Positions 39,538 through 64,000 of a stretch of DNA of 64,000 bases are shown here, piece by piece. The DNA is taken from positions 2,197,613-2,261,612 of the forward strand of contig CP070751.1 of the NCBI GenBank assembly GCA_020348445.1, read 5' to 3'. Every line of letters starts with the position of its first letter. The stretch's first letter is position 1. The DNA is from Thermoplasmata archaeon (lineage in GTDB: Archaea > Thermoplasmatota > Thermoplasmata > GCA-020350865). Position numbers and translations under genes: made by a program. The notes under the pieces are model-generated. The model ran no database searches, was not told the DNA's origin, and saw only the letters and a program-made list of their open reading frames with translations.

Positions 39538-39618
39538 TTACAACGGGACTTCCCAGACTATCGTAACCTTGGAGTGAATGTAGTATCCTCCCTCGATCTT
39601 GTAACTATCGGATATTTT
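39538..39618 (-). pseudogene. Relic of the last about 26 codons of module X, in frame behind the Y-tailed gene
   Basis: Translates KISDSYKIEGGYYIHSKVTIVWEVPL-stop; compare X ends such as KISESDYFEIGRGYYIHAKAEVVWEVPL. Confidence 0.85.
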
Positions 39619-39627
39619 GTGCTAACT

Positions 39628-42600
39628 TCATATCCCAATAAATATGAATTTCGTATTGTTTGAAGTCGAAATTTGGTAACCCTTGGTCATCTCCAAGACA
39701 ATGTCAAAAGCTCCCTTGGGCATTATCGTTGAATGCCAGCACCATCTCTGTTTGTTGTTATCGAAATAATTAATTCCAACTGTATCGGGGATGTTGTCGC
39801 AGTACCAATCTGCCGTATGGTTAAAGTCCAGTATCAGCGGTATCCCCATTGTATCGTATCCAAAAAAATATTCCTCAGTCCAGATTCCAATGCTGTATGT
39901 GCTCGCACCCTGGGTACCAAGGACATTAAAAGGAACCACCATGTAATACAGCCTGGCCCCAGGAATATTGGCCTGAATGCCGTTATGTGTAGTTGTGTTG
40001 GTTCCATAATCGACCCTACGCGCAAAGAAATAATCATCGCCAAAATCCCTAAAAAAGCCGTCCCTTGTATTCGAATAATACACTTCGTACCAATCTCCGC
40101 TACCCATGCCCGCTGGCTCCTGCCAAGTCAGGTATACATCTCCAAAGGGTAAGATATCTACTTGAAGGTTCTTTGCAGAAAAAGCTGGATTAAATCCTAA
40201 AAATCCGCTATTATCATGATAACTTATCATTGCACCTGGCATACCATAAAAAGTATAGATAGTCTGGCTGCTGAATTTCACCTCATAGCCTTCGCCCAAT
40301 TTCATTTGTGTATTGTTTGTGTCACCATCTCCAAAATTATGCTGCATCCAAGTACGCGTGGTGGCATTCATGTATCTGATATACTCAGCGTTCATGTTGG
40401 TTGTTAAATTGTCCGTATATAATACTTCAATTGGTTCCAGAGGCAAGGAGAATGTGGATACACCTTGTGGAAATATCCTTGTCCATTTCCCAACTGTTCT
40501 GCTGGTTCCGGTCACTTCATAATCATCATTCACAGCTCTTATGACATAATAGAACTGTTCCTGATAATAGTCATCTCCGGGAAGTGCAGCTTTGGCATCC
40601 CTCCATTGGGTTCTGAGGGGAATGGGAGACATCTCGGTTGTTATATCAAAATCACTTGAGGTATTCACCCACACTGAATCAAAATCGAAATCTACCTGGG
40701 TTGGTGAACGATATAACAAATAATAAGCAAGGTCCGGGTTTGAGGGTGGATCCCAGTTTAGAATCACATCTTCCCCATCCTGGCTAACGTTTATGTAAAG
40801 AGTGGGCGGCAGAAAAGGCACCCCCAATCCTTCAATAAGGTCCATCAATGGATAATTATCCTGGGAATCCAAATCGATTACATAGGGGGTATCCCCAATT
40901 CCATCACTGCCCAGGATATTTTGCATGGGGCCTTTGTAGTCATCAACACCACCGTAATCTGACCAGTAATTCCCACCTGAAGGATAACCGTCATCCCAGA
41001 AATTATCGCTTCGATCATCATATGCTTGAGTTGGATTGTTGTCTACGATGTTGTTGTGGTAGATTCGATTATTTGGTGAGCCCTGAAGATAAATACCCCA
41101 GCCGTTGTTCGAGACAAGGTTGTCAATGATGTTATTTTGACTGCTAATGCCATCGAGACGGATGCCATAAACGTTATTCGAGATGTTGTTGCCAATGATG
41201 TTGTTCCAGTTGGAGGAACTGAGAAAGATAGCATAAAAGTGGAACGTGAAGGTGTTGTCCTTGATGGTATTACCAATGGACAAACTTATCGAAATGCCAT
41301 TCCTGGCATTTGAAGAAATATCATTATGGGTAATTGTATTATAGTTACTGTCATATGTGATGTAGATACCGACACCGTACACCTCTTCGTTATTGTTAGT
41401 AACATTGTTGCAGGTAAGGGTGTTGTAACTAGAATTATAGAAGTGGAAGCCATTAGCCCTATTCTTGGAGACCGTATTGTAGACGATAGTATTGTATTCC
41501 GAGAATCTGAGGGTCATACCGTACATGATATTCGAGGAGACAGTGTTGTTAACGATAATGTTATTGTTTGAGAAGCCGAGTTGAATACCAATGCAAACAT
41601 CTCTAAGTTCATAGTTTTCTAATTTTACGTATTCGCAGTTGGCAAGGATCACCTGTCCAGCACCTAATGGGACTGTCCCACCCCAACGATTCTCCCAGTA
41701 ATATATTGGCTTTCCATTGACTGTATTTGAGGTATCTATAGTGTGGGTGTTCCAATGCTCAACCAACTCGCCCCAAATACGGATTCCATCTTTTAGCATC
41801 ATATTGTTGACGAGAGTGTTACCACAAGAGGTCTCGATATTAATGCCATAACGATTGTACGAAATATTATTGTTGACAATGATATTATAACTGGAGTAAA
41901 AGAGCATGATTCCGTCACTGTTATTAGAGACGGCATTATTGGTAATAATGTTATAGTTACTATATTGATCGAGGCGGATGCCAGGGCCCTTGTTCGAGAT
42001 TGCTATGTTATCAGTGATAGTGTTATAGTTACAAGATTGAGTGAGGTAGATGCCATTGCCATTGTTAAAAGCGGTATTATTGGTAATGAAGTTCCTATTA
42101 GAACCCTCGAAATATATGCCACTGTGGCCCCAATCTCGACCATTTGAGGAGAAGTTGTTGTTTGAGATATTGTTTCCGCTTGAACTTAAAAGATAGATGC
42201 CATTACTATTGTTAATTATATTGTTCCCAAAAATTGTATTATTATCTGAAATTATTTTTAGTCCTGTCTGATCCTGAAAAGGTCCGTTCTTGGTGATCGT
42301 AAATCCTGATATATTCACCCAATCTACAATAATTCTAACAACATCTCCACTCCCACCACCATCAATAATAGTATTTTCCCTATCCTCTCCTATTAAATTT
42401 ATAGTCTTGTTCACTACCAAATGTTCATAATAAATCCCATTGTAGACATAGACAGTATCACCATCATTACTTGCATTTATCGCATCCTGGATTGTGGAAT
42501 AATCAGTGGGAACATAGATTGTTGCACTTCCACAAGAGGTTTGTATCAGATTTTTGTCGGGAACAATGAAAACCATAGTTGACATTATAAAAAGCACACT

Positions 42601-42663
42601 GACTATAACATACGATCTTTTTAGTGTTTTAACCTTCTTCTCTCTTCGCCAGGTATTATTCGT
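39628..42663 (-). CDS. Secreted parallel beta-helix protein with C-terminal module Y (FnIII-like plus X-like half repeats); start uncertain
   Basis: The frame is open upstream of the tracked GTG (42597) and gives TNNTWRREKKVKTLKRSYVIVSVLF, similar to the N-terminus of 43581-46220. There is no ATG after the AAGGAGG SD; in-frame ACG at 42663. Confidence 0.85.
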   Translation of the reverse strand, partial: TNNTWRREKKVKTLKRSYVIVSVLFIMSTMVFIVPDKNLIQTSCGSATIYVPTDYSTIQDAINASNDGDTVYVYNGIYYEHLVVNKTINLIGEDRENTIIDGGGSGDVVRIIVDWVNISGFTITKNGPFQDQTGLKIISDNNTIFGNNIINNSNGIYLLSSSGNNISNNNFSSNGRDWGHSGIYFEGSNRNFITNNTAFNNGNGIYLTQSCNYNTITDNIAISNKGPGIRLDQYSNYNIITNNAVSNNSDGIMLFYSSYNIIVNNNISYNRYGINIETSCGNTLVNNMMLKDGIRIWGELVEHWNTHTIDTSNTVNGKPIYYWENRWGGTVPLGAGQVILANCEYVKLENYELRDVCIGIQLGFSNNNIIVNNTVSSNIMYGMTLRFSEYNTIVYNTVSKNRANGFHFYNSSYNTLTCNNVTNNNEEVYGVGIYITYDSNYNTITHNDISSNARNGISISLSIGNTIKDNTFTFHFYAIFLSSSNWNNIIGNNISNNVYGIRLDGISSQNNIIDNLVSNNGWGIYLQGSPNNRIYHNNIVDNNPTQAYDDRSDNFWDDGYPSGGNYWSDYGGVDDYKGPMQNILGSDGIGDTPYVIDLDSQDNYPLMDLIEGLGVPFLPPTLYINVSQDGEDVILNWDPPSNPDLAYYLLYRSPTQVDFDFDSVWVNTSSDFDITTEMSPIPLRTQWRDAKAALPGDDYYQEQFYYVIRAVNDDYEVTGTSRTVGKWTRIFPQGVSTFSLPLEPIEVLYTDNLTTNMNAEYIRYMNATTRTWMQHNFGDGDTNNTQMKLGEGYEVKFSSQTIYTFYGMPGAMISYHDNSGFLGFNPAFSAKNLQVDILPFGDVYLTWQEPAGMGSGDWYEVYYSNTRDGFFRDFGDDYFFARRVDYGTNTTTHNGIQANIPGARLYYMVVPFNVLGTQGASTYSIGIWTEEYFFGYDTMGIPLILDFNHTADWYCDNIPDTVGINYFDNNKQRWCWHSTIMPKGAFDIVLEMTKGYQISTSNNTKFIFIGI

Positions 42664-42749: not shown

Positions 42750-42795
42750 AAAAAGAAAATAAAAAAGATGCTCAGGAGCTTGTTTTGCCCCTGAG
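42750..42795 (-). terminator. Hairpin plus U-rich tract downstream of small secreted gene A
   Basis: RNA CUCAGGGGC-AAAACAA-GCUCCUGAG (9 bp including G-U), then UUUUUUAUUUUCUUUUU. Confidence 0.65.
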
Positions 42796-42838: not shown

Positions 42839-43306
42839 TTAATACCCAACAGCATCGATTTCTGGTCCGTAGATTGGATCTTCAAAAGATGTCTGACCCG
42901 TTGCACCAGTGATAAGGACCCATTGCCAGTATATTCCTGGAGTCGACGGTGTGGTAAAGTGGTAATCAGCTCCATCCCACCCAATCCCCAAAACTGCATC
43001 AGTTGTATTACCAATGGACTTTATCTCTACCCCATACGATTCATTTTCAGTAGAACCACCGTAGACCGTGAAAGTTGTGCTAGGGGGCATCGCATTGGTA
43101 ACGCCAAAATCGAGCACTAGTGTTCCGAGTGTTGATGGATTTGTCCCTGCAGTAGCAAAGGAATTATCAGGTGCACCTACTGCATCATTTACATTCTCAC
43201 AGTCAATAGATAATGATGCATCAATTATCCAAGGAGCAACTGCTGAGCCGCTCATAAGGATGGTTACGGCTAGTAATATTCCAAATGTTATGACAATCTT
43301 CTTCAT
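42839..43306 (-). CDS. Small secreted acidic protein, IYGPEIDAVG family, copy A
   Basis: Signal peptide ending SGSAVA; ATG at 43306 follows the GGGAGGTG SD; C-terminus DPIYGPEIDAVGY. Confidence 0.88.
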   Translation of the reverse strand: MKKIVITFGILLAVTILMSGSAVAPWIIDASLSIDCENVNDAVGAPDNSFATAGTNPSTLGTLVLDFGVTNAMPPSTTFTVYGGSTENESYGVEIKSIGNTTDAVLGIGWDGADYHFTTPSTPGIYWQWVLITGATGQTSFEDPIYGPEIDAVGY

Positions 43307-43342
43307 TTTTTTCACCTCCCTTTAAACCTGGTATTTATTCCG

Positions 43343-43357
43343 CGCCCCGCCTCGGCG
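43343..43357 (-). promoter_or_regulatory. Conserved leader motif CGCCGAGGCGGGGCG (mini-hairpin with SD-like loop)
   Basis: The same 15-mer (CGCCGAGGYGGGGCG) occurs at 46944-46958 and 50805-50819, 37-53 nt upstream of each small gene. Confidence 0.55.
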
Positions 43358-43580
43358 TGACCCATTCTACATACATTATCATAACCTGCTGTGATAGTCA
43401 ATATACTCCGACTCTTGGTCATTACCATCTTTTCACATTTGGACCTTTTAAGATGGCGCCCTCGCATACGAAGAGTTGAACTTCCCGCCACTCCCTTACT
43501 CATTTGAAATACGACATATATAAACTTTTCGACTTTAAAATATAGAAGAGCATAGATGATATTGTGTAGATTGGCATATT

Positions 43581-46220
43581 CTATAATGGAACTTCCCAAA
43601 CTACTTCATTCTTTGAGTGAACATAATATCCTCTTCCAATCTCGAAACCATCAGATGGTCCCATCTTCTCCCATCTCTGTCTTGCTGAATCATAAGTCCA
43701 GATCGCATTCACATCAGATGGGAAATCGATGTTGTTCAAGGCCGCGGTTCTGTCCCTATTGTTCAAAGAGGGATAGCCAACCATGTTCCAGCCTGGATGT
43801 AAAGCTATGTTCTGGTTATCGATCAGTCTGGTTCCATTATAGAAAAAAATCGTATCCCCTGGCTGAGTGATATGAACCCAAAAGCCCATCTTCTCGTTGA
43901 GCTCGAATAAATCGTTTCCATAAGGCTTGTTTATCTTGTAATGCTTCCATTGGTCTTTATTGTCGGTGATATTATACCATTGGACCGCATCATACAATCC
44001 ATCGATGGATTTAAGCACTTTTGTAAGGTTTTGTTCTTCCTGGATCAGAGGTAAGGAAATAAGGTTCCAGCCCTGTTTTAAAATCATAAAGTTCATGTTA
44101 GGCTCTATTAGCGGGTAATTATCCCGGGAATCCGAATCAATCATATAAGGATTCTTACCACCCCCTCCAATCGTCCCGTTATCAACTATACCATCGCTAC
44201 CTAATATGTCCTGACCTTCTCCATTATACTCATCATACGCCCCCTCGCTTGATTCATCGAAATCTGACCAGTAATTCCCTCCTGATGGATAACCATTGTC
44301 CCATCGATTTGCATTATTGGTGCCATCATAAGCTTGATTTGTATTGTTTATGATGTTGTTGTGGTAAATACTGTTATTTGTCGAGTCATTTAAATAGAAA
44401 CCATAGTTGCCACTCAAGATGACAGTATTACCTATAATGCCATTCCAGTCGGAGGAAGAGAGTAAGCGGATGCCATCCAAATTGTTCAAAGTAATATTGT
44501 TACCCATTATAGCATTGTTAATTGCCGAAGAAAGCCTGATGCCGTGAGTGCTATTCGAAATGTTGTTGCCTGATATTATATTGCCATCTGATGATGAGAC
44601 GTTTATACCTCTTAAATTGTCGGAGATATCATTACCCGTTATTTTATTGCTTGATGACCACACAAGAAGGATGCCATCATAAATGTTCGATGATAGTATG
44701 TTGTCTGTTATTATGTTGCTGTCTGAAAATTGGAAAAGATACAATCCATATTTATTATTCGTAATATTGTTGTTACATATGGTGTTTCTCATAGATAGAT
44801 ACTCGATACAGATACCGGATTCCTCGTTTGAGGAGATATTGTTGTTAAAAACATAGGTTTCGTTGCACCAAATGATATAGATCCCGTAATCGGAGTTTGA
44901 GAAGATGGTATTACCTGCGATGATACATCTATTGGATCCATCAATACGTATACCATCAACTCCGCTTTGCGAGATGTTGTTGCCTTCGATGATGGTCTCA
45001 TTGGATACCATGATAATGATACCTATTATACCAATCCGATGAAGGTGGTTGTTTTTAATGGCGGTTAAGGGGCTAGAATCAAGGTAAATGCCATGACCGC
45101 ACCAGTCGAAGGTATTGTTTTCGATAGTATGATTTGGTGAAAACCACAAGTAAATACCCTTAGGATTACTCGAAATATTATTATGTATTATGCAATTCCC
45201 ATTGCAATATAATAGACGAACACCAATTGCACCCCAGTTTGGAGAGATGGTATTGCCAATTATGTGGTTCCCATGAGAAGTATCAATGAACATGCCATCG
45301 GCGCCATTATTCGAAAATGTATTGCCTGAAATGTTATTTCTATGTGAACGATAAAGATAGAAGCCATTATAAAAGGTATTATCAACAATATTACCTATAA
45401 TGTTGTTTTCGCTGGAATAATAAAGACCAATACCATACCAGTAGTTACATGAGAAAACACCATTGCCTACGAGGTTATTATTAGAAGAAAAACCAAGTAT
45501 AATTCCGGCACAGACAGAAGAGATTACTTGACTCTCAACATTAACGTTCGTGCAGTTGGCAAGTATAACTTGGCCTGCGTCAGGGGGGACTGTGCCTTCT
45601 ATTTGGTTCTTCCAATATTGAATCGGTCTACCACTGATTGTGTTTGAAATGTCGATATTGTGACTGTTCCAGTTTTCAAGTTTCCCACCCTTGATATAAA
45701 TTCCACTATCTAACATAATATTGGCCGTAATATTATTTTCACAGGAATAATTGAGAGAGATTCCAATCCTGGTGTTAGTGAACTTATTGCCTGATATTGT
45801 ATTATGATCAGAATTTACTTTCAGTCCATCCACAACAGGATTTCCTGAGGTGATTGTGAATCCTGAGATATTTACCCAATCAACAAAAATCCTCACCGCT
45901 GGTTGACCCCCTCCACCATTGATTATTGTGCCATCCCTGTCCTCACCAGTCAGATTTATTATCTTATTAACTCCCACATCTTCATTATACGTCCCATTGT
46001 AGACATATACTGTATCCCCATCTTTTGCAGCATTTATCGCATCTTGTATTGTGGGATAATTAGTGGGGACATAGATTGTTGTTCCGCTGGAAATTTGAAA
46101 AAGATTATTATCAGGAGTGAATAACATTACAATCGATATAATAATAAGCATGCATATTATACCAGATGAACTTTTCAGTCTTTTAATCCGCTTTTCTCTC
46201 TTATATGTGTTAACATTCAT
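43581..46220 (-). CDS. Secreted parallel beta-helix protein with C-terminal module X
   Basis: TIYVPTNYPTIQDAINA head; about 20 beta-helix turns; GGNYWSD..DNYPL cap; GWNL..WEVPL tail. Confidence 0.9.
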   Translation of the reverse strand: MNVNTYKREKRIKRLKSSSGIICMLIIISIVMLFTPDNNLFQISSGTTIYVPTNYPTIQDAINAAKDGDTVYVYNGTYNEDVGVNKIINLTGEDRDGTIINGGGGQPAVRIFVDWVNISGFTITSGNPVVDGLKVNSDHNTISGNKFTNTRIGISLNYSCENNITANIMLDSGIYIKGGKLENWNSHNIDISNTISGRPIQYWKNQIEGTVPPDAGQVILANCTNVNVESQVISSVCAGIILGFSSNNNLVGNGVFSCNYWYGIGLYYSSENNIIGNIVDNTFYNGFYLYRSHRNNISGNTFSNNGADGMFIDTSHGNHIIGNTISPNWGAIGVRLLYCNGNCIIHNNISSNPKGIYLWFSPNHTIENNTFDWCGHGIYLDSSPLTAIKNNHLHRIGIIGIIIMVSNETIIEGNNISQSGVDGIRIDGSNRCIIAGNTIFSNSDYGIYIIWCNETYVFNNNISSNEESGICIEYLSMRNTICNNNITNNKYGLYLFQFSDSNIITDNILSSNIYDGILLVWSSSNKITGNDISDNLRGINVSSSDGNIISGNNISNSTHGIRLSSAINNAIMGNNITLNNLDGIRLLSSSDWNGIIGNTVILSGNYGFYLNDSTNNSIYHNNIINNTNQAYDGTNNANRWDNGYPSGGNYWSDFDESSEGAYDEYNGEGQDILGSDGIVDNGTIGGGGKNPYMIDSDSRDNYPLIEPNMNFMILKQGWNLISLPLIQEEQNLTKVLKSIDGLYDAVQWYNITDNKDQWKHYKINKPYGNDLFELNEKMGFWVHITQPGDTIFFYNGTRLIDNQNIALHPGWNMVGYPSLNNRDRTAALNNIDFPSDVNAIWTYDSARQRWEKMGPSDGFEIGRGYYVHSKNEVVWEVPL

Positions 46221-46307: not shown

Positions 46308-46354
46308 AAAAGATAAATGAGAAAATGCTGAGAAGTGAGTTATACCCCCAGCAT
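46308..46354 (-). terminator. Hairpin plus U-rich tract downstream of small secreted gene B
   Basis: RNA AUGCUGGGGG..CUUCUCAGCAU: the stem extends to 10 bp only with G-U pairs on the minus-strand transcript. Confidence 0.6.
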
Positions 46355-46390
46355 CTATGAGCTTGGTTCGATAGGATAAATGCAATGTCT

Positions 46391-46897
46391 CTATGGATAT
46401 TCATAGCCAACTGCATCGATTTCAGGTCCATAGATTGTATCTGTTGCGTCAGTCTGACCATCTTCACCATCTATCTTTACATATCGCCATACATGCCCTG
46501 AGCCAGATGTTCCCGTTGTAAAGTTGTTGTCAACTGTATCCCAATTATTATTCCAAGGCCCACATGATGCGAGAAAATCATCTCGATATACCTCTACAGT
46601 ATATTCTTCTTTTAGTCCCCAACCATTTGTTCCAAACACTGTAAATAATTGGTTGTCGGGTATCCCCGTAAATCCCATATCGAGCCACAAGTCTCCAGTT
46701 GCAGGAGTAGGTTCATTTGTCCCAACTGTAGCATAAGAACTGTCTGGGGCACCAAGGGCCTCTTCTGGATTCTCACAGTCTACTGCGGAGTAAACAGAAC
46801 CTGCATAATACCAAGCAGCAACTGCTGAACCGCTAAAAAGAATTGTTGCGATTAGTAGTGTTCCTAACATTATTCCGAATGTTTTCACTTTTCTCAT
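46391..46897 (-). CDS. Small secreted acidic protein, IYGPEIDAVG family, copy B
   Basis: SGSAVA signal end; DCENP..PD..ATVGTN; DTIYGPEIDAVGYEYP. Confidence 0.88.
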   Translation of the reverse strand: MRKVKTFGIMLGTLLIATILFSGSAVAAWYYAGSVYSAVDCENPEEALGAPDSSYATVGTNEPTPATGDLWLDMGFTGIPDNQLFTVFGTNGWGLKEEYTVEVYRDDFLASCGPWNNNWDTVDNNFTTGTSGSGHVWRYVKIDGEDGQTDATDTIYGPEIDAVGYEYP

Positions 46898-46903
46898 CCT
46901 TTA

Positions 46904-50078: not shown

Positions 50079-50154
50079 AACAACCCTCCTTTACCTAAAC
50101 CCCTGTATCTATTCATTGTTTTTCTATCTTATACACTTTTCGCCTTTTAACCCA

Positions 50155-50204
50155 AAAGAATAGAAAAATAAGGAAATACCTGAGAGTGGGTTTTACTCCC
50201 AGGT
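50155..50204 (-). terminator. Hairpin plus U-rich tract downstream of small secreted gene C
   Basis: RNA ACCUGGGAGU-AAAACCC-ACUCUCAGGU (10 bp including G-U), then a U-rich tract. Confidence 0.65.
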
Positions 50205-54375: not shown

Positions 54376-54537
54376 TGTTTTACTTCCCTCTGATTTAAGG
54401 AAAATAGATTTGCACTGATCCAAGATTGGTATATATTTCAATCGACCCTTATCTACTTTTCTAGATAGTAACACTGATATTAATAGTGCTCGAAAGAATT
54501 TGTAGTCCTATTCTTGTAGTAATTATTCGGTTCATTG

Positions 54538-55845: not shown

Positions 55846-55891
55846 TTTTCTTCCCCCTTATCTTTATGTTGTTACTATTGTGGTACCTATA

Positions 55892-55935: not shown

Positions 55936-56061
55936 TAGAAAAGTAGCCAGTTGATAGGAAGTTTTATATATGCAAAAGAATCGAAAAATGAAGTTATTAT
56001 TCAGAACTCAATTATCAACGAAGACATAGTAAATCTAGAACACACACCATCGAATCCAATA

Positions 56062-58749
56062 CTACATCCCTATAAAAGTGAATTTCGTGGTGTCCGAAGT
56101 CGATATCTGATAACCCTCCGTCATCTCCAAGACGGTATCGAAAGCACCTTCGGGCATTACAGTTGAATGCCAATACCACCGCTGTTTACTAATATTAAAA
56201 TAATTGATGCCCTCACACTCAGGAATGTTAATGCAATACCAGTCTGCCATGTGGTTATTATCCATTTTCAGCGGTATCCCCATTGTATCATATCCATCAG
56301 AATATTCCTCAGCCCAAATCCCGATGCTGTATGTGCTCGCACCCTTGATACCGAGGGCGTTGAAAGGAACCACCATGTAATACAACCTTTTTCCTGGATT
56401 GTTTGCCCCTGCACCGACATGGGTGGCGGTGTTGTTTCCAAAACCAACAGGGGGGTCAACCCGATAATAATTAAAATTAAAATCTCCAAAAAAGCCATCC
56501 CTAGTATTTGAATGATAAATCTCGTAATAATCTCCGGGGGCCATACATAATGGCTCCTGCCAGGTCAGGTTCACATCTCCATTTGCTTCAACTGTAGCTT
56601 CAAGGCTCTTCCCATCGAACATCGGGTCAAATCCTGCAAATCCGCTGTTGTCATCGAAACTTATCATAGCCCCAGGCAAACCAGTGAATGTATAGTTAGT
56701 TATGCTGTCGAATTTCACCTCATAGCCTTCGCCGACGGTAATCTGTGTACTGTTATTTCCACCATCCCCGTATTTCATCCAAATGTGTTTTACAGGATCC
56801 ATATATTTGATGTATCTAGCGTTCATGTCTCTTAGATAATAATCTGTGGTCGTGTTCATGGTCTCTAATGGTTCCAGAGGCAGAGAGAAGGTTGATACCC
56901 CTTTTGGGAAACTCTTCGTCCATTTCCCTACAGTTCTGCTGGTTCTACTCACTCTACCGACAACGTTCACAGCCCTTATAATGTAGTAATATTGCTGTTC
57001 GTAGTTGGAATTATTATCATCAGGAAATGCAGCTTTTGTATCATTCCATATAGTTCTTAATGGTATGGGAGACATCTCGCCTGATTCATTATCACTTGAG
57101 GTGTTAACCCATACAGTATTGAAATCGAATCCTGTCTGAGATGATGAGCGGTATATCAAATAATGATCGAGGCCTAAAGTTGAGGGTGGATCCCAATATA
57201 GTATCACATCATTCCCATCAAAGCTCACATTTATATAGAGGATGGGGGGCGGTGGCGGAGGAACCAGCACTGTTAATTCGCAAGTATCTGTATCTATTGA
57301 TCCGTTATTGTCTATTACTCTTAAGGTCGCAATGAAAGAGTCATTTACATCATAGGTATATGTTGGGACAGGACCGAATGCGTCTGGTTGAGACCCGATC
57401 TCCCACCAAAGTCCATCGCTTGCATCAAAGTCCCATTCGTAGGTTATTATTGTGCCGTCAGGATCATAAGAGGCTGAGCCATTGAACTGCACAACATCCC
57501 CTATGTTCACAGTTTGGTCAGGACCTGCATCTGCAACTGGAGGTTGATTAGAGGGATCAGGTACACTTAATTTTATTAACCATATATCCCGATCGCCGGG
57601 ACCATATGACATTGTATTTACCGCGATAATGTAATTATTATCCGAAGTCTGCTGAGCTGAAAAACTCCCGTCTGGTTCATCTCCACCAAAGGTTTTATTC
57701 CACTCCTCATTACCAGAACTATTGGTTTTTATAAGCCATGAGTCTTTGCTACCCGAGCCATAGGATTCTGTGTTTCCACTCAGGATATAACCACCATCGG
57801 AAGTGATACGGACTGAATGGCCCTGATCGTCAGAACTCCCACCAAAGGTCTTATTCCATTGTTCATCACCTAAACTGTCGGTTTTTATCAGCCATACATC
57901 CTCGCCGCCAGAACCATACGATCTTACAATACCGGTAATTATAAAGCCTCCATCAGAGGTCTGCTGGACTGAATTTCCGATTTCGCCCTCACTTCCACCA
58001 AAGGTCTTATTCCATTGCTCATTGCCTAAGCTATCAGTTTTTATCAGCCACACATCATGACTACCAGCACCATAAGACTCTGTTTCACCTGCGATTATAT
58101 AACCACTATCAGAAGTTTGCAGAACTGATCTACCTTCATCTCTAATATATCCTCCTTTACCGAAGATTCTATCCCACTGCTCATTACCGGAAGAATCGGT
58201 TTTTATAAGCAATATATCAGTCTTGGAGCCAGTACCATCCTTGACTTTTCCAACAATTATATAGCCATCATCAGAAGTTTGCTGGACAGAGTATCCTTCA
58301 TCACCTTCTCCTCTCTTGTCGAAAGTTTTATTCCACTGCTCATTACCCGAAGAATCGGTTTTTATAAGCCATATATCCTCAGTGCCACCACTATAAGTCC
58401 CTGTTTGGCCAGTTATTATATAACCCCCATCAGAAGTCTGCTTGGTAGAATAACCTGCATCATAAATATCTCTATTAAAGGTTTTATTCCATTGTTCATT
58501 ACCCAATGAATCCGTTTTAATTAACCATACATCTCCGCCCCAGACACCATAGGAGGTTGTAGACCCTCCGAGAATATAGCCCCCATCAGAAGTCTGTTGG
58601 ACAGAATGTGCTCCATCATTACCGGTTCCACCAAAGATTTTACCCCATTGGATCTCTGGTTGAGCGGTTACATCCTCTGGCACTTCTACCGTAAAAACAG
58701 CAGTAATCATCATAGCAAACAACACTAAGCTCACAAGTTTAGATTTCAT
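56062..58749 (-). CDS. Secreted 7-bladed beta-propeller + PKD protein with C-terminal module Y
   Basis: Seven about 52-aa repeats WNKTF..SVQQTSDGGYII.G...D.WLIKTDS.GNEQ; PKD NQPPVADAGPDQ..YEWDFD; Y tail. Confidence 0.9.
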   Translation of the reverse strand: MKSKLVSLVLFAMMITAVFTVEVPEDVTAQPEIQWGKIFGGTGNDGAHSVQQTSDGGYILGGSTTSYGVWGGDVWLIKTDSLGNEQWNKTFNRDIYDAGYSTKQTSDGGYIITGQTGTYSGGTEDIWLIKTDSSGNEQWNKTFDKRGEGDEGYSVQQTSDDGYIIVGKVKDGTGSKTDILLIKTDSSGNEQWDRIFGKGGYIRDEGRSVLQTSDSGYIIAGETESYGAGSHDVWLIKTDSLGNEQWNKTFGGSEGEIGNSVQQTSDGGFIITGIVRSYGSGGEDVWLIKTDSLGDEQWNKTFGGSSDDQGHSVRITSDGGYILSGNTESYGSGSKDSWLIKTNSSGNEEWNKTFGGDEPDGSFSAQQTSDNNYIIAVNTMSYGPGDRDIWLIKLSVPDPSNQPPVADAGPDQTVNIGDVVQFNGSASYDPDGTIITYEWDFDASDGLWWEIGSQPDAFGPVPTYTYDVNDSFIATLRVIDNNGSIDTDTCELTVLVPPPPPPILYINVSFDGNDVILYWDPPSTLGLDHYLIYRSSSQTGFDFNTVWVNTSSDNESGEMSPIPLRTIWNDTKAAFPDDNNSNYEQQYYYIIRAVNVVGRVSRTSRTVGKWTKSFPKGVSTFSLPLEPLETMNTTTDYYLRDMNARYIKYMDPVKHIWMKYGDGGNNSTQITVGEGYEVKFDSITNYTFTGLPGAMISFDDNSGFAGFDPMFDGKSLEATVEANGDVNLTWQEPLCMAPGDYYEIYHSNTRDGFFGDFNFNYYRVDPPVGFGNNTATHVGAGANNPGKRLYYMVVPFNALGIKGASTYSIGIWAEEYSDGYDTMGIPLKMDNNHMADWYCINIPECEGINYFNISKQRWYWHSTVMPEGAFDTVLEMTEGYQISTSDTTKFTFIGM

Positions 58750-58942: not shown

Positions 58943-59008
58943 TTAAAGTGGTACCTGCCAAACATCATCTACCCGGGAATGAATATAGTATCCCTTTCCA
59001 ATCTCGTC
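58943..59008 (-). pseudogene. Second relic of the module X terminus, in frame behind the Y-tailed gene
   Basis: Translates DEIGKGYYIHSRVDDVWQVPL-stop. Confidence 0.85.
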
Positions 59009-59041: not shown

Positions 59042-61837
59042 TTATTTCCCGATAAAAGTGAATTTCGTGGCGCTTGAAGTCGATATCTGATAACCTACCG
59101 ACATCTTTAAAACTGTATCAAAAGCTCCCTCGGGCATCACAGTTGAATGCCAACACCACCGCTGCTTGCTGTTATTAAAATAGTTGATCCCAACGGTATC
59201 AGGGATGTTGTCGCAGTACCAATCTGCAGTATAGTTTTCTTTGAGTTTCAGCGGAATGCCAAACGAATCATATCCTCTTGAATATTCTTCAGTCCAAATC
59301 CCGATGCTGTAAGTACTCGTTCCTCTATCACCGGTAACGTTGAAAGGAACAACCAAATAATACAACCGCGCACCTGGATTTGCGGCCTGTGCATCAATAT
59401 GGGTTGCTGTGTTGTTTCCATAGTTTACAATAGGACAAGCAAGGAAATAATCCTCATCAAATGTTCCAAAAAAACCATCCCTTCTGTTCGAATAATATAC
59501 CTCGTACCAACCACCTACACCCATGCCTATTGGTTCTTTCCAAATTATAGATACATTTCCATCAGGCTCAACAGAAACTGTTAGGTTTTTTGATTCAGAG
59601 CTTGTATTGAACCCAAGAAATCCAGTATCATTATTGAAACTAATCATTGCCCCAGGCAAGCCAGTGAAAGTGTAATTGGTCTGGCTGCTAAATTTCACCT
59701 CATAACCTTCGCCCACAATAATCTGCCTATCGTTATTCCCACCATCTCCATGTTTCATCCAGGTGTGAGTTGTGGAGTTCATCCATTTTATGTACGTAGC
59801 GTTCATGTCATTAAGTAAATAGTCAACTGTAATCGGCTGCAAGGGTTCCAATGGCAAAGAGAAGGTTGATACATCCTTCAAGAAAGTCTTTGTCCATTTA
59901 CCAACTGTTCTGCTGGTTGCGCTCACCTGATTACGGTCGTTAAAGGCTCGTATAACATAGTAATACTCTTCATTATAATTTGTAGCATTTCCTGGGAATG
60001 CGGCATTGGTATCGTTCCACATCGTTCTCTCGGGATTTAGTGTTGTTTCATCTGGTTCCATATCTGTTAAGGTATTAATCCATGGAGAACTAAAATCGAA
60101 ATTAGTTGGATCTTTTGAACGATAAATCAAATACGGGTCGAAGTCTTGATCTGATGGTGGATCCCAATTAAGGGTCACATTTTTCTTGTCCGGGCTTACA
60201 TTAATGTAAAGGATTGGGGGTGGTAAAGGCGGTATCGATGCTTCAAAAAGCTCCAACAATGGGTAATTATCTTGGCTGTCAGCATCTATAACATATGGAT
60301 TCTTACCACCACCTGCAACTGATCCATTATCAACTATGCCATCCCTTCCCACCAAATTTTGCTCTCGTCCCAGATAATCGTCATACGCCCCTTCACTTGG
60401 TTCATCGAAATCTGACCAGTAATTACCGCCTGAAGGATAAGAATCGTCCCAGAAATTATCGTTCATATCATCGAATGCTTGATCGGTATTATTAATAATA
60501 TTGTTATGATATATTCTATTATTTGATGATGATTCGAGCGTGATGCCACGCAAATAGTTCAATATTATAGTATTGTTTTTAATAATGTTATTGTTCGAGT
60601 CTCTAATGAAGATGCCCCAACCGTTCCAATATGCTTTGTTGCTGGTTATAGTGTTATTATTTGAAGACCACGAAAGAGAGATGCTATAAAAATTATAAGA
60701 TAAATTGTTTCCTCGCACATTGTTATTGTTACATGAACCGCGAAGCTCAACTCCCTTATTGCTATACGAAACATTATTGTCTTTTATATTATTGTTTGAT
60801 GATGAGTGAAGACTTATACCCTCCGTGCCTCCAAGGGGTACATCATTGTTTGTGATATTGCTGTTTGATATCGAGATGAGTTTGATACCAGAAACGCTAT
60901 CTGAAACCTTATTCCCAGTGATGTTGTTCCCACTGGAATACCAGAACATTATAGTATCATAGTTATCTGAGACGTTGTTGTTTGTAATATTAATATTCGT
61001 GGAGAATGCAACATTTATTCCTATCGTAGTGTCATTTATATGCAAGTTTTTCGCGTTGATATCTGAACAATTGACAAGAATCAATTGTCCAACGGGTATC
61101 CCATCGATATTAAAGCCGCTGCAATCCTTATAGTAATACAAAGGCTTTCCGTTTATAATATTATTAGTTGGTATATCGTGAGAATTGAAGTGTGACAGTT
61201 GATCTCCTCCTAAGCGAATACCACCGGGAGCTATGTTGTTGCTTATAATAGTGTTGTTGAATGAATAATAAACGTAAATACCCCATCGACTATCCCATGT
61301 TGTAACTTTATTATCTGTAATGTTGTTGTTATCGGAATAATCAAGATAGATGCCACATAGGGTCGATACATTATTGCTTACGATAATGTTGTTTGATGAA
61401 TCATCAAGATGGATTCCCCACCTGTTTAATGATATGTTGTTGTTCATAATACTACAATTCTGGACATTGTTTAATTTTATACCTTCTTTAGGAATTGGGT
61501 CACTCCCTATAAGAGTAAATCCTGTGATATTCACCCAATCCTCAGTAATTGTAATAACATCATCAAATAATCCATCGATTATCGTCGTATCCTGATTTTC
61601 CCCTGTCAAATTTATTGTCTTGTTCACTATTATATTTTCATAATAGGTCCCGCTATAGACATAGACTGTATCCCCATCCTTACTTGCATTTATCGCATCC
61701 TGTATTGTGGGATAATCAGTGGGAACATAGATTGTTGCAGCACTGGAGGTTGGTATTAAATTGTTATCAGGAATAATCAACATAGTAATCGATATGATAA
61801 AAAGCATGCTAACTATAATAGATGAGCGTTTTAACAA
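59042..61837 (-). CDS. Secreted parallel beta-helix protein with C-terminal module Y
   Basis: TTG start after AGGAGAG; TIYVPTDYPTIQDAINA head; GGNYWSDFDEPSEGAYD..DSQDNYPL cap; Y tail. Confidence 0.9.
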   Translation of the reverse strand: MLKRSSIIVSMLFIISITMLIIPDNNLIPTSSAATIYVPTDYPTIQDAINASKDGDTVYVYSGTYYENIIVNKTINLTGENQDTTIIDGLFDDVITITEDWVNITGFTLIGSDPIPKEGIKLNNVQNCSIMNNNISLNRWGIHLDDSSNNIIVSNNVSTLCGIYLDYSDNNNITDNKVTTWDSRWGIYVYYSFNNTIISNNIAPGGIRLGGDQLSHFNSHDIPTNNIINGKPLYYYKDCSGFNIDGIPVGQLILVNCSDINAKNLHINDTTIGINVAFSTNINITNNNVSDNYDTIMFWYSSGNNITGNKVSDSVSGIKLISISNSNITNNDVPLGGTEGISLHSSSNNNIKDNNVSYSNKGVELRGSCNNNNVRGNNLSYNFYSISLSWSSNNNTITSNKAYWNGWGIFIRDSNNNIIKNNTIILNYLRGITLESSSNNRIYHNNIINNTDQAFDDMNDNFWDDSYPSGGNYWSDFDEPSEGAYDDYLGREQNLVGRDGIVDNGSVAGGGKNPYVIDADSQDNYPLLELFEASIPPLPPPILYINVSPDKKNVTLNWDPPSDQDFDPYLIYRSKDPTNFDFSSPWINTLTDMEPDETTLNPERTMWNDTNAAFPGNATNYNEEYYYVIRAFNDRNQVSATSRTVGKWTKTFLKDVSTFSLPLEPLQPITVDYLLNDMNATYIKWMNSTTHTWMKHGDGGNNDRQIIVGEGYEVKFSSQTNYTFTGLPGAMISFNNDTGFLGFNTSSESKNLTVSVEPDGNVSIIWKEPIGMGVGGWYEVYYSNRRDGFFGTFDEDYFLACPIVNYGNNTATHIDAQAANPGARLYYLVVPFNVTGDRGTSTYSIGIWTEEYSRGYDSFGIPLKLKENYTADWYCDNIPDTVGINYFNNSKQRWCWHSTVMPEGAFDTVLKMSVGYQISTSSATKFTFIGK

Positions 61838-61956: not shown

Positions 61957-62002
61957 AAAAATGAATAAGAAGATGCTAGGATTTGTTATATTCCTAGCAT
62001 CT
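61957..62002 (-). terminator. Hairpin plus U-rich tract downstream of small secreted gene D
   Basis: AGATGCTAGGA..TCCTAGCATCT perfect 11-bp stem, then UUCUUAUUCAUUUUU on the minus strand. Confidence 0.7.
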
Positions 62003-62041: not shown

Positions 62042-62530
62042 TTAATCATAGCCGACTGCATCAATCTCTGGTCCATAGATTGTATCCCCTGGGCCAGTTG
62101 AGCCAGTCTCACCATTTATGTTGACAAAGCGCCAAAAGCTAGTAGGGGTAGTTCCTGTAGTAAAGTTATTGACCACTAAATCACTATGTCCACCTGTTCC
62201 TACGCAACTATCTCCCCAATCAGCTCTCCAAACTTCGATATAATAGTTCTCATCTTGTCCAGAACCTTGGGTTCCGTACACCCTAAGTATTGTAGAATCT
62301 GGTATTCCGACAAATCCAAAATCGAGCCATAGGTCTCCGGTTGCAGGATCGGGGATATTTGTCCCAACAGTTGCATAAGTAGTATCTGGTTCATCGAGTG
62401 CTTCTTCGGGATTCTCACAATCTGTATATGCATATACCGTTCCTGCATAGGTCCCAATTGCAACAGCTGAACCGCTCAATAGAATAGTTGCAATCAATAA
62501 TGTTCCAAATATCGCAATGTATTTTCTCAT
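62042..62530 (-). CDS. Small secreted acidic protein, IYGPEIDAVG family, copy D
   Basis: ATG at 62530 follows GGGAGGAGGTGA; SGSAVA; DCENP; DTIYGPEIDAVGYD. Confidence 0.88.
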   Translation of the reverse strand: MRKYIAIFGTLLIATILLSGSAVAIGTYAGTVYAYTDCENPEEALDEPDTTYATVGTNIPDPATGDLWLDFGFVGIPDSTILRVYGTQGSGQDENYYIEVWRADWGDSCVGTGGHSDLVVNNFTTGTTPTSFWRFVNINGETGSTGPGDTIYGPEIDAVGYD

Positions 62531-62777
62531 ATTCTTTATCACCTCCTCCCTTATCTAGGATTTTTATTTATACCTCACCTCACCATCTATTATCTTACAG
62601 CCCAAAAATATCAAAGGGCTGGTTCTAATAAGTATCAACTGGAATATCATGGTAATATCCTTCCTCTTCCGCTTTTTTATCACCTCCGTCCTCTTCATGT
62701 TTTTTGATGGCGTAATCACATTTCAAGAGGTAATGTTTCCCAACATGCCTTCCAATGCATAACAGTTGCTAGGCGAT

Positions 62778-62821
62778 GTATAAAAACGTTTTGTGGAACG
62801 TTCCGCAAAAGATTTTTATAC
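62778..62821. promoter_or_regulatory. 44-bp back-to-back BRE/TATA element, central palindrome type 2
   Basis: GTATAAAAACG-TTTT-GTGGAACGTTCCGC-AAAA-GATTTTTATAC; 19 of 22 positions pair across the centre. Confidence 0.75.
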
Positions 62822-62980
62822 TAGAAAATGTCCAGATAATAAAGTTATGCCAATTAGGGGAGAGGTAAGGAAATAATAGGTTGCCTAGCGGTCTGGAGTA
62901 TACTTTTTCACATGGTTAGTATTGAAATCTTAGAAGATGAGTTAAATCGTTTATCAATTTCCACTTTAGATTAAACCTGA

Positions 62981-64000
62981 TCAAAGAGGAACATCCCAAA
63001 CCTTTGTGACTTTGGAGTGAATATAGTATCCTCTTCCGATCTCGAAATAATCCGACGGTCCCATCTTTTCCCATCTTTGAGTACTCGAATCATAGGTCCA
63101 GATCGCATCGACATCAGATGGGAAGTCGATGTTGTTCAAAGCTGCGGTTCTATCCCTATTGCTCAGTGAGGGGTAGCCAACAAGATTCCAGCCCGAATGT
63201 AAAGCGATGTTCTGGTTTGCGGTTGGCCTTGTGCCATTATAGAAGAAGATAGTGTCTCCCGGCTGAGTTATATGAACCCAGATGCCCATTTTTTCGTTCA
63301 ACTCAAATAAATCGTTTCCATAAGGCTTGCCTTCTTTGTAATGTTTCCAGGGATCTTTTGTGTCGGTAATATTATACCATTGGACCGCATCATACAAGCC
63401 ATCGATGGACCTAAGCACTTTTGTCAGGTTTTGCTCTTTTTGGATCAGAGGTAGAGAAATAAGGTTCCAGCCCTGCTTTAAAATCATATAGTTTTTGTTA
63501 GGCTCGATAAGGGGATAGTTGTCTTGGGAATCTGAATCGATCACATAGGGATTCTTACCACCACCTCCAATCGTCCCGTTATCGACTATTCCATCATTGC
63601 CCAATATATCCTGACCTTCTCCATTATACTCATCATATGCCCCTTCACTTGATTCATCGAAATCTGACCAATAATTGCCGCCGGAAGGATAGCCATTGTC
63701 CCATTGGTTTGCATTATTCGTACCATCGTAAGCTTGAATTATATTGTTTATGATGTTGTTGTGGTAAATACTGTTATTTGTCGAGTCATTTAAATAGAAA
63801 CCATAGTTGCCGTTTGAAAAGACGGTATTACCGATAATGCCATTCCAGTTGGAAGAAGCGAGAAGGCGAATGCCATCATTATTGTTTAAAGAAACGTTGT
63901 TACCTGATATTTTATTGTCGTCTGATGATGAGGATACATTTATACCTTCTAAATTGTCTGAAATAACGTTACCCAAGATGTTGATATTTGATGACTGGAC
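62981..64000 (-). CDS. 3' part of a secreted parallel beta-helix protein with module X (5' end outside the window)
   Basis: The frame stays open to position 64000; the sequence closely parallels the C-terminal third of 43581-46220. Confidence 0.88.
   Translation of the reverse strand, partial: VQSSNINILGNVISDNLEGINVSSSSDDNKISGNNVSLNNNDGIRLLASSNWNGIIGNTVFSNGNYGFYLNDSTNNSIYHNNIINNIIQAYDGTNNANQWDNGYPSGGNYWSDFDESSEGAYDEYNGEGQDILGNDGIVDNGTIGGGGKNPYVIDSDSQDNYPLIEPNKNYMILKQGWNLISLPLIQKEQNLTKVLRSIDGLYDAVQWYNITDTKDPWKHYKEGKPYGNDLFELNEKMGIWVHITQPGDTIFFYNGTRPTANQNIALHSGWNLVGYPSLSNRDRTAALNNIDFPSDVDAIWTYDSSTQRWEKMGPSDYFEIGRGYYIHSKVTKVWDVPL

Follow-up and report, generated by a model that had tools for sequence, protein, structure and literature searches.

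Tandem cassettes of a small, putatively lectin-like exported protein and a modular beta-helix protein in a Thermoplasmata archaeon

Why is a small exported protein encoded again and again ahead of a large beta-helix protein, and what do the two tail modules, X and Y, of the large proteins do? These questions are raised by a stretch of 64,000 nucleotides (the window) from the 5.16-Mb genome of an uncultured sediment archaeon of the Thermoplasmata. The window contains four minus-strand cassettes, each with a small exported gene and a large beta-helix gene of the NosD type, separated by a hairpin plus T-run (Table 1). All four pairs of the original prediction are present. We favor, with a probability of roughly 0.55, a family of surface glycan-recognition proteins that duplicates and recombines, its tails holding proteins at the surface and its lectin working in trans; we infer these two functions from the findings below. 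The first cassette product would be a strongly translated, Sec-exported, stand-alone beta-sandwich resembling galactose-binding domains (CBM32/discoidin), and the second, encoded after the hairpin/T-run, a Sec-exported right-handed beta-helix protein of the NosD/CASH type. The X or Y tail would provide a non-covalent hold on the cell envelope, most likely via envelope glycans or a common receptor protein. Together with the beta-helix head, the small lectin-like protein may act in trans to recognize glycans, mediate adhesion or process polysaccharides, and divergence among the copies could diversify this specificity.

Table 1. Features of the array in the window (all on the minus strand).
Position	Strand	Feature	Details	Basis
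62981..64000	-	beta-helix gene, 3' part; gene continues past window end	Y tail (62981-63508)	tblastn (tail)
62543..62810	-	conserved region upstream of S166 gene		alignments
62042..62542	-	small exported protein S166, paired with 59042..61837	signal-like N-terminus, predicted CBM32/discoidin-fold beta-sandwich, C-terminal end IYGPEIDAVGYD	ORF, AlphaFold model
61972..62001	-	hairpin + T-run		alignment, terminator scan
59042..61837	-	large exported protein, 931 aa (L931)	NosD/right-handed beta-helix head, X tail (59042-60244)	tblastn (tail)
58943..59005	-	Y-tail remnant, non-coding	last ~20 codons, ending …GKGYYIHSRVDDVWQVPL and stop	tblastn, Y-HMM (E 9.6e-6), translation
56062..58749	-	unpaired exported protein, 895 aa	SBBP-like propeller repeats, PKD, X tail (56062-57243)	tblastn (tail)
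52069..54474	-	unpaired exported protein, 801 aa	beta-helix, CARDB, Y tail (52069-52572)	Pfam, tblastn (tail)
50243..50752	-	small exported protein S169, family of S166, paired with 47259..49967		
50178..50204	-	hairpin + T-run		alignment, terminator scan
47259..49967	-	large protein, 902 aa	beta-helix, CARDB, X tail (47259-48413)	Pfam, tblastn (tail)
46391..46897	-	small exported protein S168, family of S166, paired with 43581..46220		
46324..46355	-	hairpin + T-run		alignment, terminator scan
43581..46220	-	large exported protein, 879 aa	NosD beta-helix head, Y tail (43581-44108)	Pfam (head, 6.2e-70), tblastn (tail)
42839..43315	-	small exported protein S158, family of S166, paired with 39628..42597		
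42771..42795	-	hairpin + T-run		alignment, terminator scan
39628..42597	-	large exported protein, 989 aa	NosD beta-helix head, X tail (39628-40818)	Pfam (head, 4.4e-59), tblastn (tail)
39538..39612	-	Y-tail remnant, non-coding	last ~24 codons, ending …GGYYIHSKVTIVWEVPL and stop	tblastn, Y-HMM (E 9.5e-6), translation

The four small proteins of the window (158-169 aa) start with a hydrophobic signal-like segment whose last residues are SGSAVA in every copy, and their C-terminal IYGPEIDAVG is near-invariant. An AlphaFold model (pLDDT 90) was compared with known structures. The best VIA matches were all CBM32/discoidin modules (54 chains at Z>=8), among them the Clostridium perfringens modules GH89 CBM32-4 (4a3z; Z 12.1, rmsd 3.1 A, 125 residues) and NanJ CBM32 (2v72; Z 11.0). 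The model has the same ~130-residue beta-sandwich as these two, at an rmsd of about 3 A over 125-127 residues. CBM32s were also the top Foldseek matches (E 2.5e-4 to 8e-4), and a PDB profile search with the small family gave a single match, a CBM32, that was not significant. In Pfam, neither discoidin nor carbohydrate-binding families were matched by any of 23 aligned family members, the four window copies included; six unrelated families were hit by one member each (best E 0.0029). The galactose-binding-like (CBM32/discoidin) fold is thus a model-based assignment by fold alone, from which a glycan-binding role is predicted. Like CBM32/discoidin modules the small protein is exported; unlike them it has no sequence-level membership and is free-standing with its own signal peptide instead of being fused to an enzyme. 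A distant family member is embedded in a multidomain beta-helix/RGI-lyase/F5_F8 protein. No described system had been recognized at the locus in the original prediction, and no Pfam, NCBIfam or PDB sequence entry covered the small protein, X or Y.

All four paired heads lie far above the Pfam thresholds for right-handed parallel beta-helices of the NosD/CASH type (PF05048, PF13229), with NosD/Beta_helix E-values from 1e-39 to 6e-70; L931 scores 1.4e-39 for NosD and 1.3e-29 for Beta_helix. The signal-peptide-like segment of the 902-aa protein lies upstream of the called GTG start, in an extension that is in frame and, by translation, reaches to about 50072. In contrast to NosD systems, the array has no NosF/NosY/NosZ-type neighbors, and its products, large surface proteins present in multiple copies, bear X/Y tails and additional CARDB or FN3 domains. 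The NosD match does not imply a role in copper delivery. To our knowledge, NosD-family beta-helices are not demonstrably catalytic. The unpaired 895-aa protein matched PKD_4 in Pfam (1.4e-16) and, weakly, the SBBP repeat in NCBIfam.

X had been assigned to five proteins and Y to four; by tblastn, X was found in four window genes and Y in five, two of which (26135 and 21441) lie beyond the range considered originally. The propeller gene at 54538-55845 carries neither tail. Both modules are real, yet not special to the window array: 115 exported proteins of the host genome, together 6.3% of it, have a complete X (32) or Y (83) as their exact C-terminal end. An N-terminal hydrophobic segment is present in 106 of them, and a C-terminal or later membrane-helix-like window in none, so that the claimed lack of a C-terminal anchor holds genome-wide. 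Their passengers include beta-helix, BNR, PKD/propeller, CARDB, LTD, VWA and M14 peptidase domains as well as lectin-like heads. X and Y are indeed portable C-terminal modules common to unrelated passengers on anchor-free exported proteins. Among 201 sampled genomes of the class, Y occurs in 90 and X in 27, every one of the latter also having Y.

Y consists of two beta units of ~85 residues each, arranged in tandem (GWNL[IV]SxP … W.H … GxGYW[IV]H … W.VPL-COOH). Its model, taken from the 879-aa protein, is of high confidence (pLDDT 96, pTM 0.90) and had no clear match among PDB structures (best Z 5.2, over half a domain). X comprises ~390 residues in the order FN3–unit–FN3–unit, a duplicated FN3–unit pair ending in FIG-COOH. 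The internal duplications were recovered for Y1 and Y2 (98.7%), U1 and U2 (98.4%) and F1 and F2 (98.6%). Comparison of an X unit with a Y unit (U1 and Y2; 59% probability, E 9e-5) is suggestive of homology between them. An FN3–Y intermediate exists in G010:C51, in which the profile match of X shares 56 residues with that of Y.

By analogy, and from their extreme C-terminal position, X and Y are probably surface-retention tags; the docking, sorting or polymerization role proposed for them originally is likewise hypothetical. The closest analogy in logic is the type IX secretion CTD (Por_Secre_tail) of Bacteroidota, also a helix-free, beta-rich C-terminal domain that a single genome places on anything from dozens to over 100 Sec-exported proteins with unrelated passengers. 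However, X and Y do not match it in Pfam or NCBIfam, nor does Y structurally; Y is twice as large and internally duplicated, the archaeal host has no outer membrane to cross, and no machinery was found. In Gram-positive bacteria, SLH domains, GW modules (Listeria InlB/Ami) and CWB2 bind a surface polymer non-covalently through C-terminal repeats of ~55-85 residues. Y resembles these wall-retention modules in its tandem repeat and conserved Gly-Trp, but there is no Pfam match to GW, SLH or CWB2, and neither an SH3-like nor an SLH-like match was obtained with the Y model. PGF-CTERM/PEF-CTERM archaeosortase signals are, like X and Y, archaeal, C-terminal and common to many surface proteins; they differ in that a membrane helix plus a basic tail forms their end. 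The conserved Y residues W14, Y39, Y45, W54, H56, D66, W107 and W171, which are of the kind seen in sugar-binding sites, also fit a rather unlikely alternative, namely that X and Y are substrate-binding (CBM-like) or self-association modules that multimerize secreted proteins away from the cell. The two-fold internal repeat of Y could favor symmetric contacts, and no receptor or processing enzyme was found. The strictly terminal position argues for retention instead: 115 of 144 matches end <=5 residues from the stop, with a conserved last tripeptide. Moreover, passengers of every kind, peptidases and lectin-like heads included, are joined to these tails, and ~115 copies per genome without a C-terminal membrane helix are hallmarks of sorting/retention tags, not of substrate-specific CBMs.

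What, then, is the partner of the small protein? The host genome has 14 small genes, 13 of which are followed 98-276 nt downstream by a co-oriented beta-helix gene; the 14th copy is disrupted. Eleven of the 13 partners carry X or Y and two are tail-less. Outside the host genome, six of seven evaluable copies lie directly upstream of a beta-helix gene. The order of small and beta-helix gene is found again in a sister genome as well as on metagenome contigs; the tail may be X, Y or neither. On one metagenome contig a small–head-X pair is followed by a small–head-Y pair. This gene order is not due to chance, and what stays constant next to the small gene is the NosD-type head, irrespective of the tail.

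A docking partner of the X/Y tails (a cohesin-like or adaptor subunit), forming a display system with them, is consequently a very unlikely role for the small protein. In favor of it, both partners are exported, 11 small genes adjoin X/Y-tailed genes, and the small protein, lacking its own anchor, has to attach to something. The functional tie to X/Y nevertheless fails on numbers, with ~115 X/Y proteins against 14 small genes, and on distribution. The small family is rare and stand-alone (about 96 representative clusters world-wide) and, in a search with a single protein as query, was confined to the window's own genus (3/5 genomes, against 0/56 other relatives), whereas Y is class-wide. In addition, one small-protein clade pairs with X, Y and tail-less beta-helix genes. 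Dockerin–cohesin assemblies (cellulosomes; the CBM32-rich glycosidase complexes of C. perfringens) likewise have a common docking module on modular exported proteins and head/tail shuffling. X and Y, however, have no Ca-binding dockerin repeat and far exceed dockerins in size, and a scaffold with repeated receptor modules was not found. The small protein itself is ruled out as a cohesin-type scaffold by its rarity.

The signals around the genes suggest unequal expression. A G+C-rich hairpin followed by a T-run separates small and large gene in all four cassettes, with a TATA-like TTTATAAA box after the hairpin. Small genes have GGAGGTGAT plus ATG, and large genes have weak or non-canonical starts positioned after the hairpin. 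Judged from sequence, the large gene appears to be the more weakly expressed of the two, and the hairpin/T-run would probably lower read-through into it. Such expression would suit a dedicated helper of the neighboring protein, i.e. a folding or assembly factor, or an inhibitor of a glycan-cleaving beta-helix enzyme, in place of a lectin. Tight adjacency to one head family, kept through 35-63% sequence divergence, is compatible with this, as is co-inheritance of the small gene with the N-terminal 140 residues of the head: the L931 cap clusters with partners of the small proteins closest to S166, and the rest of the L931 head groups elsewhere. We consider a helper unlikely, since the predicted fold is that of carbohydrate-binding modules and linkage alone predicts co-inheritance of adjacent DNA. 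Most related beta-helix genes also lack such a partner: of the X/Y genes with a beta-helix head, at least 60 in number, only ~13 have one, so beta-helix proteins have no general need for it, a point that counts against our favored reading too. As an inhibitor, the small protein would protect the cell's own glycocalyx from the beta-helix enzyme.

The array is the product of tandem duplication plus recombination, the 'ordinary' alternative named in the original prediction. Exchange of heads and tails, as predicted, is evident from sister heads that carry unlike tails in well-supported groupings (SH-aLRT 95-100). Further support is provided by the two non-coding Y remnants, which lie in frame behind the stops of the X genes 59042..61837 and 39628..42597: displaced Y tails left their last 20–24 codons behind. 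The region would belong to a recombining array of surface-protein genes duplicated in tandem. Mosaic recombination of this kind is typical of paralogous families, and each gene has its own TATA-like box with a terminator-like hairpin in between. The pairs could accordingly be functionally uncoupled genes for independent exported proteins, co-amplified in tandem, with X and Y as common domains of a lineage-specific expansion. Adjacency could persist merely by duplication of the pair as a unit, and 13 of 14 does not represent 13 independent events because all pairs may share one ancestral pair. This explanation seems improbable to us, however, as adjacency outlasted extensive recombination that exchanged tails and head parts, and was kept down to 35% identity, in other genomes and metagenome contigs. 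Non-coding DNA upstream is conserved above the coding sequence as well. Ahead of the S166 gene, where putative promoters and a leader of 180-230 nt are predicted, a ~200-nt stretch reaches 78% identity compared to 56% for the coding sequence. It is preceded by a 10-nt palindrome, GGAACGTTCC (62795-62804), located between two TATA-like boxes.

The minus strand between 39.5 and 64 kb carries eleven co-oriented genes, and the window sits within one single contig of 5.16 Mb. Four cassettes, each composed of a small exported gene and a large exported beta-helix gene, were located in this interval. In these cassettes the large gene lies 171-276 nt downstream of the small gene, and in every gap a G+C-rich hairpin precedes a T-run and a TTTATAAA box. 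The cassette layout of the original prediction is thus borne out by gene coordinates, gene order and the hairpin with T-run in each gap, while the promoters and the leader assigned there are putative. Its count of five X and four Y tails (the two C-terminal modules of the large exported proteins) was slightly off: tblastn in the window placed X in four genes and Y in five, and detected neither in the propeller gene. G+C content was 34-36% in 50001-56000 and 22001-28000 compared to about 43% elsewhere. The former stretch spans an 801-aa Y gene and the tail-less propeller gene, the latter BNR and beta-helix Y genes.

Features of the cassette array, in window positions
Feature	Position	Strand	Remark
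Small gene	62042-62542	minus	158-169 aa (all four)
Small gene	50243-50752	minus	
Small gene	46391-46897	minus	
Small gene	42839-43315	minus	
Large gene	59042-61837	minus	931 aa
Large gene	47259-49967	minus	902 aa
Large gene	43581-46220	minus	879 aa
Large gene	39628-42597	minus	989 aa
Upstream region of small gene	62543-62810	minus	
Upstream region of small gene	50753-51020	minus	
Upstream region of small gene	46898-47180	minus	
Upstream region of small gene	43316-43570	minus	second leader type
Short leader hairpin	62571-62584	minus	
Short leader hairpin	50805-50819	minus	
Short leader hairpin	46943-46959	minus	
Short leader hairpin	43343-43357	minus	
Palindrome	62795-62804		
Palindrome	50997-51016		
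Palindrome	47167-47176		
Palindrome	55904-55923		
Propeller gene	54538-55845		no X or Y tail
PadR-like winged-helix gene	51524-52036	plus	weak match

According to tblastn in the window, X comprises about 390 aa and Y about 170 aa. Genome-wide, 144 ORFs showed similarity to X or Y. Full tails ending at most five residues from the stop were found in 115 proteins (83 with Y, 32 with X), which make up 6.3% of the genome. An N-terminal hydrophobic segment was present in 106 of the 115. C-terminal helices were sought in the last 45 residues with a 17-residue window and a Kyte-Doolittle mean of at least 1.8; none of the 115 proteins had a hydrophobic window there or beyond residue 90. The claim that the proteins of the array have no C-terminal transmembrane anchor or PGF-CTERM-like signal therefore holds. 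Beta-helix heads, i.e. N-terminal passenger parts, accounted for about 60 of 136, and the others comprised BNR, PKD/propeller, CARDB, CBM4_9, DUF11, PQQ-like, LTD, VWA and M14 peptidase domains. The strict C-terminal position, the occurrence with every kind of passenger, the number of about 115 copies and the lack of a C-terminal membrane helix in all of them suggest that the tails serve in retention: X or Y would keep the large protein, along with about 100 further exoproteins, attached to the envelope non-covalently. With the same features in view, we consider it unlikely that the tails are substrate-binding or oligomerisation modules instead.

Close homologues came from MAGs named 'Methanomassiliicoccales archaeon' and 'Thermoplasmata archaeon' in their sources. 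When 201 genomes of the class were sampled, Y was detected in 90 (about 45%), covering 40 of 76 genera and often with dozens of copies, and was not found in several families with near-complete genomes. X occurred in 27 of the same genomes, all 27 of them Y-positive, and is hence nested within the Y distribution. Open frames of 2,600 to 8,700 residues with a terminal Y tail occur in other families of the class (genome and contig labels G024:C11, G035:C28 and G173:C110), and giant surface proteins therefore share this tail. Since the tails end about 115 exported proteins, are present in about 45% of the class genomes and are absent from Pfam and NCBIfam, they represent a candidate retention mechanism.

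Y is an internal tandem duplication, its units Y1 and Y2 aligning with an hhalign probability of 98.7%. Each unit, about 85 residues long, has the motif order GWNL[IV]SxP … W.H … GxGYW[IV]H, and the protein ends with W.VPL. A model folded with 37 paralogues (pLDDT 96.1, pTM 0.90) was all-beta with one short helix per unit. Foldseek gave no match of this model in the PDB at E<=0.001, and VIA-align, run exhaustively over 48,161 chains, reached a best Z of 5.2 over half of the domain only. An ESM Atlas search returned unnamed clusters only. A single-sequence match to a designed Kelch propeller (E 2e-5, 32 residues) was supported neither by the profile search nor by the model and was therefore taken as a coincidence of repeat pattern. 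For X, profile comparison suggests the order F1-U1-F2-U2 (F1 to F2 98.6%, U1 to U2 98.4%), where F appears FN3-like from its sequence. PF00041 matched the 902-aa protein below threshold (residues 721-765, E 0.004, 17.8 bits, cut-off 25) and is precomputed on several X-bearing homologues. U and the Y unit are alike in motif order, and U1 aligned with Y2 at 59% probability (E 9e-5). One genome (G010:C51) encodes an FN3-Y protein on which the X and Y profiles match over a shared stretch of 56 residues. A common origin of U and Y units is likely but unproven.

The tails are reminiscent of the T9SS C-terminal domain (Por_Secre_tail, TIGR04183), which is likewise C-terminal on many Sec-exported proteins with unrelated passengers, 115 in the case of X/Y. 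However, Pfam had no match in the tails of whole proteins, nor NCBIfam with isolated X and Y. The T9SS domain is an Ig-like beta-sandwich of about 80-100 residues; no PDB match of the Y model exceeded Z 5.2, and T9SS C-terminal domain structures were not among the matches listed. PGF-CTERM and PEF-CTERM archaeosortase signals consist of a short motif followed by a hydrophobic C-terminal helix, the element lacking in all 115 proteins. GW modules (PF13457), SLH and dockerin domains had no sequence match in X/Y proteins either (Pfam, whole proteins, E<=0.01). The sequence of Y matched neither the T9SS domain nor SLH, GW or CWB2, the structure searches with its model listed no match to them, and the likeness to the T9SS domain and the Gram-positive SLH/GW/CWB2 modules would be one of logic only. 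No solved structure of clearly similar sequence or fold was found for the tail family.

Exchange between heads and tails has taken place. A maximum-likelihood tree of 46 related heads (quick search mode) contained well-supported sister heads with different tails: 2237240-X and 3863579-Y (support 100), 3171955-Y and 4489882-X (support 100), and 2256654-X and 2040536-Y (support 95). One X gene was nested in a clade of Y genes with 99% support. The first 140 residues of the 931-aa protein resemble most strongly (65-73%) the large proteins paired with the nearest relatives of its own small gene, and the rest of the head groups elsewhere, which indicates breakpoints within heads. The most direct evidence of exchange comes from the X genes 39628 and 59042, whose stops are followed by the final 24 and 20 codons, respectively, of a Y tail. 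These remnants follow in frame after stop-codon-stop, and each ends in its own stop (…GGYYIHSKVTIVWEVPL and …GKGYYIHSRVDDVWQVPL). Thus, most of a Y tail was displaced by an X module that carried a stop of its own. No comparable remnant was found behind the other 35 X genes or any of the 86 Y genes; a candidate for a decayed one was noticed on one metagenome contig. At the two loci, domain swapping has left a clean natural record.

The small protein has a signal-like N-terminus (…LGTLLIATILxSGSAVA) and a near-invariant C-terminus, IYGPEIDAVG. Library searches with the small protein, X and Y, as proposed in the original prediction, yielded no significant sequence match in Pfam, NCBIfam or the PDB, and the fold of the small protein emerged from the model only. 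In particular, the four window copies matched no Pfam family at E<=0.01, among 23 members of the family neither a CBM nor a discoidin family was hit at E<=5 (PF00754 and PF22633 included), NCBIfam returned nothing, and the PDB profile search gave 4a41 alone at a non-significant E of 0.48. The model, folded with 23 family members (pLDDT 90.1), is predicted to adopt the galactose-binding-domain-like fold of CBM32/F5_F8_type_C, an eight-stranded beta-sandwich (jelly-roll) of about 130-150 residues. CBM32/discoidin-type modules filled the top ranks of both structure searches. VIA aligned the model to CBM32 and fucose-binding modules with Z of 12.1, 11.0 and 10.9 over 117-127 residues, the best match being CBM32-4 of C. 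perfringens GH89 (Z 12.1, rmsd 3.1 A, 125 residues), and 54 chains reached Z>=8. The top eight Foldseek matches were all of CBM32 type (chitosanase, alginate lyase and BT3015 CBM32s; E 2.5e-4 to 8e-4). CBM32 modules bind sugar through loops at one end of the sandwich and have a structural Ca2+ site. The conserved residues N44, D74, E98, D121, D153, E159 and D161 are compatible with sugar or Ca2+ binding, but not diagnostic. The family is rare, with 20 proteins in a word-indexed set of 5.8 billion and 96 representatives at E<=0.001 among 1.84 billion. Nearly all members are free-standing and 150-170 aa long. A few distant ones are repeats within large proteins, one of which also has F5_F8_type_C_2, RGI-lyase, FN3 and beta-helix domains. 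Among the genomes of 61 relatives, a single-protein query found the family only in the window's own genus (three of five genomes).

The genome contains 14 small genes. In 11 cases a co-oriented X- or Y-tailed gene follows 98-276 nt on (five X, six Y), and two further small genes precede beta-helix genes which have the same N-terminal cap and no X/Y tail. The remaining copy is disrupted. One small gene outside the window (G000:C1:4216838-4217551, genome, contig and position) lacks the conserved C-terminus and continues into unrelated sequence; about 1.4 kb downstream of it, a 137-aa ORF may, by eye, be IS200-type transposase-like. The sister genome CP070739.1 has one small copy ahead of a beta-helix gene whose Y is truncated and another that is not upstream of a beta-helix gene. 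The copy in a third genome of the genus precedes a beta-helix gene whose tail is not detectable. On metagenome contigs all four evaluable copies were upstream of beta-helix genes, one contig having the order Y-end, small, head-X, small, head-Y. The pairing of small gene and beta-helix head recurs beyond the window; a fixed link to X/Y tails does not. Since small genes precede beta-helix genes with X, with Y or without a tail, the constant partner is the NosD-type head. This argues against the small protein as docking partner of the tails, and such docking, in spite of the 11 tailed neighbours, is now very improbable. The small gene was absent beside most related heads and beside all non-beta-helix X/Y proteins. 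That small and large genes were merely co-duplicated would be another way to read the recurrent pairing, and we hold this to be rather improbable; the same applies to a role of the small protein as helper or inhibitor, when set beside its predicted sugar-binding fold.

All four paired large proteins scored far over threshold for Pfam NosD and Beta_helix (PF05048, PF13229; NosD 136-235 bits, gathering cut-off 23.6), and one also matched CARDB. ORFs of at least 150 aa in 39.5-64 kb included no nosF/nosY ABC genes and no nosZ, as would accompany NosD proper; their matches were limited to beta-helix, CARDB, PKD, propeller and wHTH domains. Paired heads did not form a clade of their own in the tree but were interspersed with unpaired ones. 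The 902-aa and 989-aa genes have ACG (about 50072 and about 42660) where the 879-aa paralogue has its ATG start. The only signal-peptide-like segment of the 902-aa gene (…KKLASIEIACLVITAGFLGF…) is in an in-frame upstream extension, with no ATG, GTG or TTG ahead of it. The ACG of this gene is either a non-canonical start or a sign of a decaying gene.

Both cassette proteins have export signals and no anchor. The small protein, probably produced in excess, would serve a beta-helix protein of the cell surface in trans as its carbohydrate-binding module, and this partner may be an adhesin or a polysaccharide-active enzyme. Taken together, we tentatively propose, with a probability of about 0.3, that X/Y constitute an undescribed archaeal surface display free of membrane helices, in which one conserved beta unit of about 85 residues is recognised by a common envelope receptor or glycan, and that the cassettes are a rapidly diversifying two-component glycan-recognition subsystem controlled by a conserved structured leader. 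If so, any exported passenger could be plugged onto the surface through recombination with this unit, which would be present twice in Y and alternate with FN3 in X. As a class, the whole would fit known kinds, namely C-terminal surface-retention tags and CBM plus beta-helix glycan-recognition proteins; no description of the X/Y tails or the cassette was found in literature searches or domain libraries. According to PMC6461988, sediment Thermoplasmata related to the source genome are abundant, uncultured heterotrophs thought to use detrital polymers. The tail family is a candidate means of keeping exo-enzymes and adhesins at the cell in these archaea and offers a handle for annotating thousands of proteins labelled 'hypothetical' or 'beta-helix repeat'. 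The cassettes would add a free-standing partner with a predicted lectin fold.

The two genes of a cassette differ in their starts. The small gene begins with a strong GGAGGTGAT plus ATG, and the large gene, behind the hairpin and T-run, has a weak or non-canonical start. Upstream regions were compared for the four window copies and ten other copies in the genome. About 180 nt are better conserved than the small genes themselves (mean pairwise nucleotide identity 78% vs 56% among the ten copies that share the common leader type), leader identity exceeding gene identity in 43 of 45 pairs. Three copies, one of them in the window, have a second leader type. The RNAalifold consensus of the whole leader from all 14 copies was weak (-2.3 kcal/mol), the fold z-score of one copy was -1.4, and an Rfam scan of 39-64 kb matched no known RNA family. 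In 20 of 21 copies, some of them from other genomes and metagenome contigs, a short hairpin precedes the small-gene ATG by 58-75 nt. Its 7-nt loop, GAGGYGG, is Shine-Dalgarno-like, and its stem shows compensatory changes (CGCC/GGCG, CACC/GGTG, TCC[CT]/GGGA, including a sense-strand U-G pair). RNAalifold also paired an upstream CUUUCU with the real ribosome-binding site. The hairpin may represent a cis-regulatory leader. Some 250 nt ahead of the small genes, two opposed TATA-like boxes flank a perfect or near-perfect palindrome (GGAACGTTCC in some copies, TTTTGGTTAGCTAACCAAAA in others), which is a candidate operator site; putative small-gene promoters are a distal one at the palindrome and a proximal TATAAATA. 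The 20-nt version of the palindrome is also located upstream of the propeller gene at 55.9 kb, and the weakly matching PadR-like gene is divergent from one cassette.
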